A stretch of DNA of 64,000 nt, from the NCBI RefSeq assembly GCF_003019035.1, contig NZ_CP027448.1; one strand, written 5' to 3'. Source of the stretch: Escherichia coli (GTDB lineage: Bacteria > Pseudomonadota > Gammaproteobacteria > Enterobacterales > Enterobacteriaceae). The notes beneath the pieces were generated by a model. The model worked only from the letters and a program-made list of their open reading frames with translations, made no database searches and was not told where the DNA came from. The position numbers were made by a program, and so were the translations under genes. Shown here piece after piece: positions 61,832-64,000 of this stretch (position 1 is the stretch's first letter; every line of letters begins with the position of its first letter).

Positions 61832-64000
61832 ATGAAAAAATCACAACTCTCAGTTATCATTAGTTCTTTCTTGTTTAGTCCGCTGGCATCCGCTGCACTG
61901 GTTACTTCAATAACAGCGAATCAGAATCGACTAGCTGTAGTAATGTCAGATGACGTTTTGAACAGTAACGATGGCAGCAATGCTGTTTATGCAAATGGAC
62001 AAAATTCAACAATTGATACTAATGGGTATACAATCACTACAACCGGAACACGCTCATTCGCTACTAATGCTAGCGATGGTGGTGTGGTAAGGAAAAATTG
62101 AGGTTTATGGTGTCAGTGCACATGCTATATCAGCCAAAGCAGGGGGAGTAGTAAACGTTAACGGTACGCAAACTATTGTTGAAGGAGTTAATTCAAATGG
62201 TGTTTTTGCCAATGGTGGCGACATACATTTAAAGCAAACCACAATTACTACAACGAATGAAAAAAGCTATGCCATTGCCTCAGAAAGTTCATCATCCGGA
62301 TATACTAGTATTTCTGACAGTCAGATAATTACATCTGGAAAAAATTCTCATGGTATTCATGCATCACAGGGCAATCTCACCGTTTCTGATTCTGATATAA
62401 AGACCACGGGAAATAACGCCCGGGGAATCAGCATTTCCAACAAGGCAGTAATTGATCTTAATAATGTCAGTATAACCACCTGGGGTGGAGAACGTGCTGA
62501 TGGTTTGGTCGTCGGCGGAGTGCTGAAAGGCCGGAATTTAGCTGTGCTTGCAGAAGGAAGCAATTCCTATGCTGCCGTTATGGCTGATACGGGAGTTCTT
62601 GATTTACAGGGCAGTTCCCTGGTTTCAAAACAATACGCAGCCCTGGACTTTACTAATCAGGGAAATAGCCGAACCGGAGCGATTGCCACCTTTGGCGACT
62701 CTTCCCTGCACGGAAATACTGCAGCTATCCTGGCCACAAATTCTGTTGGTCAGATTGACATGATAAATTCCACCGCTCGTTCAGATATGGGGATACTGGC
62801 CAATATTGGTAGCAATGCAGAAATAACTGTTGATGCATCACAGAAATCAGTCCTGTCAGGAACGACCAGTGTTGCTACAGGAAGTACTCTTAACATACTC
62901 CTGTCTGATGGTGCTTCCTGGATATCCGGTGGCGATTCCACTGTGACAAATCTTCTGCTGGATAACGGGAACCTGGTTATTTCCGGACCTGATGCCACCA
63001 GGAATGTGGGTAATGTCGTTACGGTAACCGGAGATTATCGGGGAAATAACGGGAATATCGAATTTAATACCGTGCTGGCAGGCGATGATTCTGCAACAGA
63101 CAAACTTATTGTTCAGGGCAATACCAGCGGTAAAACCTTTGTTACCGTAAACAAGGCGGGCGGTTCCGGAGCGCAGACGCTTAATGGTATTGAACTGATT
63201 CACGTCGACGGGCAGTCAGACGGTGAATTTACTCAGACAGGGCGTATTGCTGCCGGTGCCTATGACTACACGCTGGGACGTGGTACGGGAGTTAACAGTG
63301 GTAACTGGTATCTGACCAGTGGTAAAAACTCACCGATTCCGGACAGCCATAACAATGACCTGCGTCCAGAGGCTGGCACATACACTGCAAACCTCGTTGC
63401 TGCAAACACCATGTTTGTGACCCGCCTTCATGAACGTCTGGGGCAGACGCAATACGTCGATGCAATTACCGGAGAACCGAAAGCAACCAGTATGTGGATG
63501 CGCCATGAAGGAGGACATAACCGCTGGCGCGACGGTTCTGGTCAACTGAAAACTCAAAGTAATCGTTATGTGATTCAACTGGGTGGTGATATCGCACAAT
63601 GGGATTGGGGTGGAACTAACCGCTGGCATCTGGGGGTTATGGCTGGTTACGGTAACAACTATAGCAGTACAGGTGCAGTACGCACCGGATACCATTCAAA
63701 AGGCAGCGTAAATGGTTACAGTACCGGGCTGTATGCTACCTGGTATGCTGATGATGAGACTCATAACGGAGCTTATCTGGATACCTGGGCTCAGTACGGC
63801 TGGTTCAATAACTATGTGAAAGGAGACGGACTGCAGGGTGAATCCTGGAAATCAAAAGGACTTACCGCCTCTCTGGAAACAGGTTATACCTGGAAAGCGG
63901 GTGAATTTTCCGGCAGTCAGGGAAGCCTGAACGAATGGTATATCCAGCCTCAGGCTCAGATTGTATGGATGGGAGTAAAAGCTGATAAACACCGTGAAAA
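61832..64000 (+). pseudogene. AIDA-I/Ag43-like autotransporter adhesin gene, frameshifted at A5 tract (62093-62097); 3' end beyond window
   Basis: Signal-peptide ORF (61832-62101) stops at TGA; reading resumes in another frame from about 62102 with beta-helix-type repeats and autotransporter barrel-like C-terminal region, open to window end. Confidence 0.7.

Follow-up and report, generated by a model that had tools for sequence, protein, structure and literature searches.

The stretch of DNA analysed here (hereinafter, the window) consists of 64,000 nucleotides (nt) of an Escherichia coli IncF conjugative plasmid (contig NZ_CP027448.1), with the tra genes located at 1-25 kb, and it ends within a gene for an AIDA-I-type (type Va) autotransporter that, very probably, is a lineage-fixed pseudogene, that is, a derivative of a gene for an 839-amino-acid (aa) protein broken by an 11-base-pair (bp) deletion. 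In a preliminary description made from the sequence alone, this gene was considered to be interrupted at a homopolymer of five adenines (A5). This diagnosis is superseded by the comparison with the intact homologues, a check proposed in the same description: these homologues share the A5 and contain 11 extra bp, and it is the deletion of these 11 bp at 62089|62090 that breaks the frame.

Loss of the reading frame and its spread

The truncated open reading frame (ORF) at the 5' end of the gene (61832-62101; the gene and all its features lie on the plus strand) comprises 87 wild-type codons followed by two out-of-frame codons (AAA AAT) and a premature TGA at 62099-62101 that is met in the shifted frame; the 3' end of this ORF reads GTA AGG AAA AAT TGA, and the product is 89 aa long. 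It starts with a predicted Sec signal peptide, MKKSQLSVIISSFLFSPLASA (61832-61894), in which a basic n-region is followed by a hydrophobic core (mean Kyte-Doolittle value over 9 residues up to 2.4) and a likely A-S-A cleavage motif. The orphaned 3' portion of the gene is in the +1 frame relative to the 5' ORF and occupies 62091-64000; it encodes the remainder of the passenger, then the autochaperone and the initial ~60% of the beta-barrel, and is cut off at the window edge. This frame is open from 62091, after a TAA at 62088-62090, to 64000, lacks a signal peptide, and has its first canonical start codon, a TTG, at 62505 and its first ATG at 62580. In all these respects, the sequence is as originally described: the ORF with the signal peptide does end at the TGA right after AAAAA (62093-62097), the downstream frame contains no stop in 633 codons from 62100, and, when one A is removed in silico, the two frames become fused (...SDGGVVRKIEVYGVSAH... 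/ ...GGVVRKIEVYGVSAH...). Thus, in the window, the signal peptide, the passenger and the barrel are not parts of one polypeptide, in contrast to the intact relatives.

Alignment of the window to five relatives yields a single 11-bp gap, at 62089|62090, where all five carry extra bases. In particular, AATATTAATGG (equivalently, ATATTAATGGA) is missing compared to all intact relatives, with a microhomology of 1 bp at the junction, and the 11 extra bases in the chromosomal copies are AATGTTAATGG or AATATTAATGA. The junction lies 3 nt upstream of the A5 tract. Moreover, the 11-bp insert is present in all 39 PLSDB plasmids with coverage of the site, and all 91 flanking bases in these plasmids are identical to those in the window. 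The intact plasmid alleles read GGT GGT GTG GTA AAT ATT AAT GGA GGA AAA ATT GAG in this region, which translates as GGVVNINGGKIE, so that the lost 11 bp span codons 87-90 of the sequence ...GGVV-NING-GKIEV.... When the 11 bp are present, the ORF reads through to yield proteins of 839 aa, 841 aa (in an allele group that is 93% identical) or 850 aa (in one chromosomal copy), which end in ...GVKYTF; when they are absent, the resulting shift by -11 is equivalent to +1 in phase. Given that the closest intact allele, from plasmid p1RM8082 (L001, 839 aa), shows zero substitutions over 2301 bp apart from the 11 bp, the lesion is a recent 11-bp deletion, and the alignments show that the frame was lost in this manner and not through a homopolymer slip. 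Because the microhomology is just 1 bp, no slippage template can be named for the deletion. Direct or inverted repeats of at least 7 nt were not found within 120 bp of the deletion, and DNA folding revealed no hairpin at the intact site (minimum free energy of -1.2 kcal/mol, z=+0.9). The appearance of a stop three codons past the deletion is unremarkable because, in this autotransporter gene, a stop within four codons after a shift of the same phase is expected at ~40% of the positions.

The likely course of the inactivation can be outlined as follows. The loss of the 11 bp shifts the frame such that the ribosomes read GTA AGG AAA AAT and halt at the TGA at 62099-62101, and the 89-aa product, which would consist of the signal peptide and ~66 passenger residues, would have no translocator domain and would not be displayed on the surface. 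The remaining 746 codons, with no start near the break and no signal peptide, would not give rise to a functional autotransporter, and any product of the downstream frame would be expected to stay in the cytoplasm. Subsequently, under relaxed selection, the barrel-coding region would have undergone a 25-bp tandem duplication in a sub-lineage.

The broken allele is not confined to this plasmid. The exact 89-aa product is encoded on 127 public contigs (158 index blocks; NCBI, ENA and Logan assemblies), where it is named 'hypothetical protein', and in the five carrier loci that we fetched, the junction is identical, with 0 mismatches to the window over positions 61700-64000 (2301 bp). The intact 839-aa proteins are abundant as well: there are dozens of variants, spread over hundreds of contigs. 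The two alleles, intact and broken, co-circulate and are about equally common (126 vs 127 contigs). Of the five deletion carriers that we fetched, four, one of which represents 17 further similar places, also contain a frameshifting 25-bp tandem duplication, GGCACAACAAAATGGATGACGGTAA, in the barrel-coding region ~75 bp past the end of the window (equivalent to L006 7254-7278; in the coordinates of the window, this would be ~64075-64099). The remaining carrier, L007, lacks the duplication, so the deletion came first and the duplication was acquired later, in a sub-lineage. Over its last 7169 bp (56832-64000), the window shows 100% identity to the duplication carrier L006 and differs from L007 by two substitutions and one gap; the window itself is most probably a member of the sub-lineage with both lesions. 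The presence of the second frameshift in most carriers points to progressive decay. Together, the deletion and the 25-bp duplication can conveniently serve as a clonal marker of one IncF plasmid lineage that is found on more than 100 public contigs. For the purpose of annotation, both ORFs are to be merged and labelled as a single AIDA-I-type autotransporter pseudogene (11-bp deletion) rather than as a phase-variable adhesin.

The A5 tract and alternative explanations

The A5 tract next to the break (62093-62097) is not the lesion but a bystander at its normal, wild-type length. It is kept in the intact plasmid alleles (GGA GGA AAA ATT); at the same position, the chromosomal homologues have either GGAGCAATT or GGAACAATT, which means that the A run is not conserved. 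Such tracts are commonplace, with 276 runs of at least five A or T in the window, and there are three A6 runs within the autotransporter gene itself.

The preliminary description left three options for the interrupted gene, namely, a pseudogene, a sequencing error and slipped-strand phase variation of a surface adhesin, of which only the first has held up. Under phase variation, the A5 tract would gain or lose an A at a useful frequency, switching the adhesin on and off, and indeed, the loss of one A restores the open frame, and a -1 change at this very tract has occurred at least once, giving the A4 variant of L011 and L012 (one NCBI and one Logan assembly). This variant, however, belongs to a lineage that keeps the 11 bp, in which A5 is the ON length and A4 yields an OFF pseudogene; because A4 inactivates the undeleted gene, it is a case of decay, not switching. 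In the deletion allele, the 'repair' by removal of an A would not recreate the wild type but rather a protein that is four residues short (without NING) and carries a Gly-to-Arg change, and most of the carriers have the second frameshift in the barrel region. Homopolymers are known to drive phase variation of surface proteins in the contingency loci of Neisseria, Haemophilus and Bordetella, where the runs typically consist of ~7-8 nt or more. Similarly to these loci, the A5 tract is located in the 5' coding region of a gene for a surface protein and adjoins a frame break, but unlike them, it is only 5 nt long, well below the typical length, is invariant, has the wild-type length and is not the cause of the break. 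The break did not result from a change in the tract length, and, for the deletion allele, the ON and OFF lengths are not both seen among close relatives. Furthermore, all 127 contigs that carry the deletion encode the product with the same A5, none of the A2-A8 variants is on record, and the run is not conserved among the chromosomal homologues. We modelled the products of the tract variants of the deletion allele (A2, A3, A4, A6, A7 and A8, with the frame-restoring A4 and A7 taken with and without the 25-bp duplication, for a total of 8 constructs), and none of the 8 was found by exact look-up among ~15 billion catalogued proteins, a search that would miss a revertant bearing any extra substitution. 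The sequence between 61400 and 61900 contains no GATC and hence no GATC cluster like that of the Ag43-type Dam/OxyR switch. Phase variation is a very improbable explanation, and the autotransporter gene is an ordinary dead gene, with no on/off switch.

Frameshifts next to homopolymers are a classic artefact of long-read sequencing, which could suggest an error in the sequence or assembly of a gene that is actually intact. Yet, the difference involves 11 bp of non-repetitive sequence as opposed to a 1-nt homopolymer miscount, and many independent assemblies from different pipelines show the identical allele; its presence on 127 contigs of independent assemblies excludes an error in practice. 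Another scenario, to which we assign an equally negligible probability, is recoding, whereby low-level +1 frameshifting (a slip of tRNA-Lys on the A-AAA-A that precedes AAU-UGA and lies downstream of AAGGA) or transcriptional slippage would allow the production of some full-length protein. What speaks for recoding is only the local geometry, that is, the A run, the nearby in-frame stop and the Shine-Dalgarno-like AGGA a few nt upstream; this configuration, however, is a recent by-product of the deletion that is conserved in no relative, the passenger produced would carry an internal deletion, and in most carriers, the second frameshift truncates the barrel. In addition, an A5 tract is too short for efficient transcriptional slippage.

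Apart from the restriction of the look-up to exact sequences, certain considerations weigh against the interpretation of this gene as a pseudogene that was killed by the deletion and is decaying further. For this isolate, the allele is identified through its identity with other assemblies rather than from reads of the isolate itself, and the window stops short of the duplication site, so that the second lesion here is inferred. Furthermore, a scan of the region upstream of the gene for a sigma-70 promoter gave chance-level matches only. Given that no convincing promoter was detected, expression even of the intact alleles is uncertain, and the gene may already have been silent before the deletion.

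Relationships of the autotransporter

The assignment of the gene to the autotransporters, already made in the preliminary description, is corroborated by Pfam matches in the orphaned frame. The Autochaperone domain type 1 (PF18883, AC_1) maps to 62937-63275 (E=2.8e-29; residues 280-392 of the translation from 62100), overlapping a Pertactin-like region (PF03212, 5e-9), and the Autotransporter beta-domain (PF03797) maps to 63492-63998 (E=1e-26), with positions 1-154 of the 255 in the profile covered and the rest past the end of the window. In the intact relative L001, PF03797 is matched in full (E=2.2e-42), and the other model of the 12-strand barrel translocator, TIGR01414, is matched at E=1e-118. 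The C-terminal beta-barrel translocator and the upstream autochaperone and beta-helical passenger that are typical of type Va are thus present. The layout is that of AIDA-I, the diffuse-adherence adhesin (PDB 4MEE, NF033176), and includes a signal peptide, a beta-helical passenger, a type-1 autochaperone, a linker and a 12-strand barrel. In the intact relative, the match to the AIDA-I translocator structure 4MEE spans residues 394-839 (E=8e-102), that to NF033176 spans residues 360-839, and the autochaperone matches the IcsA structures 3ML3 and 5KE1.

The protein nevertheless differs from AIDA-I in several respects: the match to NF033176 involves the C-terminal part only and scores 361 bits vs the cut-off of 1200, the length is 839 vs 1287 aa, with a much shorter passenger that is not alignable to that of AIDA-I, and the copy in the window is frameshifted. 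All NCBIfam matches (the ECSE_1600 family, MisL and AIDA-I) are sub-threshold and C-terminal. The best of these, to the ECSE_1600 family (NF011422; 1806 aa), scores 528 bits over the C-terminal ~720 residues, far below the cut-off of 2335. The last ~600 bp of the window, at the barrel-coding end, are 94.5% identical to the gene for a 1371-aa autotransporter of F/F' plasmids (WP_000995793.1, yuaO region), which is also located on IncF plasmids. Both with the ECSE_1600 family and with this F-plasmid autotransporter, only the autochaperone and barrel regions are common; the passenger is different and much shorter. In the literature, we found no published name or functional study of the protein described here, the mentions being of the F-plasmid yuaO or of general autotransporter content; this AIDA-I-type plasmid autotransporter is uncharacterised.

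Even the intact form of the gene is problematic in the current annotation. The intact 839-aa ORF that includes the signal peptide (L001 4133-6652, L005, L018 24824-27037) is classified in RefSeq as a pseudogene 'missing N-terminus', and in GenBank, the Prokaryotic Genome Annotation Pipeline gives a 737-aa coding sequence that starts from ATA at codon 103 of the intact ORF. Both calls are probably an annotation artefact of the comparison with the 1806-aa model of the ECSE_1600 family; the intact 839-aa relatives should be neither called 'missing N-terminus' nor started at codon 103.

Decayed autotransporter pseudogenes are known in E. coli, for example, ydbA, yejO and ycgH of strain K-12. The gene described here resembles these in that an autotransporter gene is inactivated by small indels or insertion sequences (IS) and fixed in a lineage, and differs from them in being plasmid-borne, with intact and broken alleles co-circulating.

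Other lesions and the plasmid context

Within gene nt 259-277 (GTAAATATTAATGGAGGAAAAATT; window 62087-62098; L001 4391-4409), we identified six independent inactivating lesions of four kinds in public assemblies, on different allele backgrounds; neither a repeat nor a hairpin accounts for this cluster. Apart from the 11-bp deletion itself (window, L006-L010), these are a 14-bp deletion in L015, which represents a different allele background with 54 mismatches in 4.9 kb, an insertion of A at gene nt 261 (L013, L014), a deletion of A at gene nt 265 (L021), a nonsense substitution of TGA for GGA in codon 90 (L016, L017) and the change from A5 to A4 at gene nt 273 (L011, L012). The lesions were defined on the DNA fetched for members of the 90% protein cluster that holds the 89-aa product (11 members). 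The truncations in P0022, P0024 and P0025 were also considered as 11- or 14-bp deletions; the DNA shows an inserted A, a nonsense substitution and just one 14-bp deletion.

The clustering is suggestive but subject to ascertainment bias, with five of the six lesions found via the same protein cluster as the product in the window, that is, among products of similar length. In the 93%-identical allele group, the breaks are located elsewhere (among the 15 members listed of 630), and other lesions in this autotransporter family are scattered, including those at gene nt 68 (+G), 197 (-A), 332 (+A), 518 (+A) and 2254 as well as an IS3 insertion. It seems rather doubtful that the 19-nt stretch is a recurrent target of inactivation, which would suggest a mutational hotspot or convergent selection against the adhesin in livestock-associated E. 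coli. Should the clustering stand up to an unbiased survey, it would provide a modest case of convergence in the loss of a surface protein encoded on a plasmid.

The autotransporter region matches E. coli IncF plasmids and a few chromosomes. The gene is located downstream of RepFIA and ccdAB; in the relatives, its neighbours on the flanks are IS remnants and ibrAB-like genes. In the window, the segment directly preceding the autotransporter start (61474-61800) contains IS and transposase remnants; the transposase remnant at 61600-61738, on the plus strand, is collinear with L001 3901-4039, which is annotated as 'transposase; frameshifted; incomplete'.

From ~41 kb to its end, the window is collinear with pRHB07-C12_2 (IncFIA/FIB/FII). 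The region at ~44450-48850 encompasses a conserved IncF trio, as judged by collinearity with CP055749.1, whose products are a ThiF-family adenylyltransferase (~742 aa), a metallohydrolase and a WYL-domain protein; this trio might be a module involved in defence or regulation. At ~39670-40920, ~1.2 kb of the window have no counterpart in the otherwise collinear pRHB07-C12_2, and the adjoining 38.1-39.7 kb are just ~95% identical; this segment resembles a mosaic junction within the leading region.
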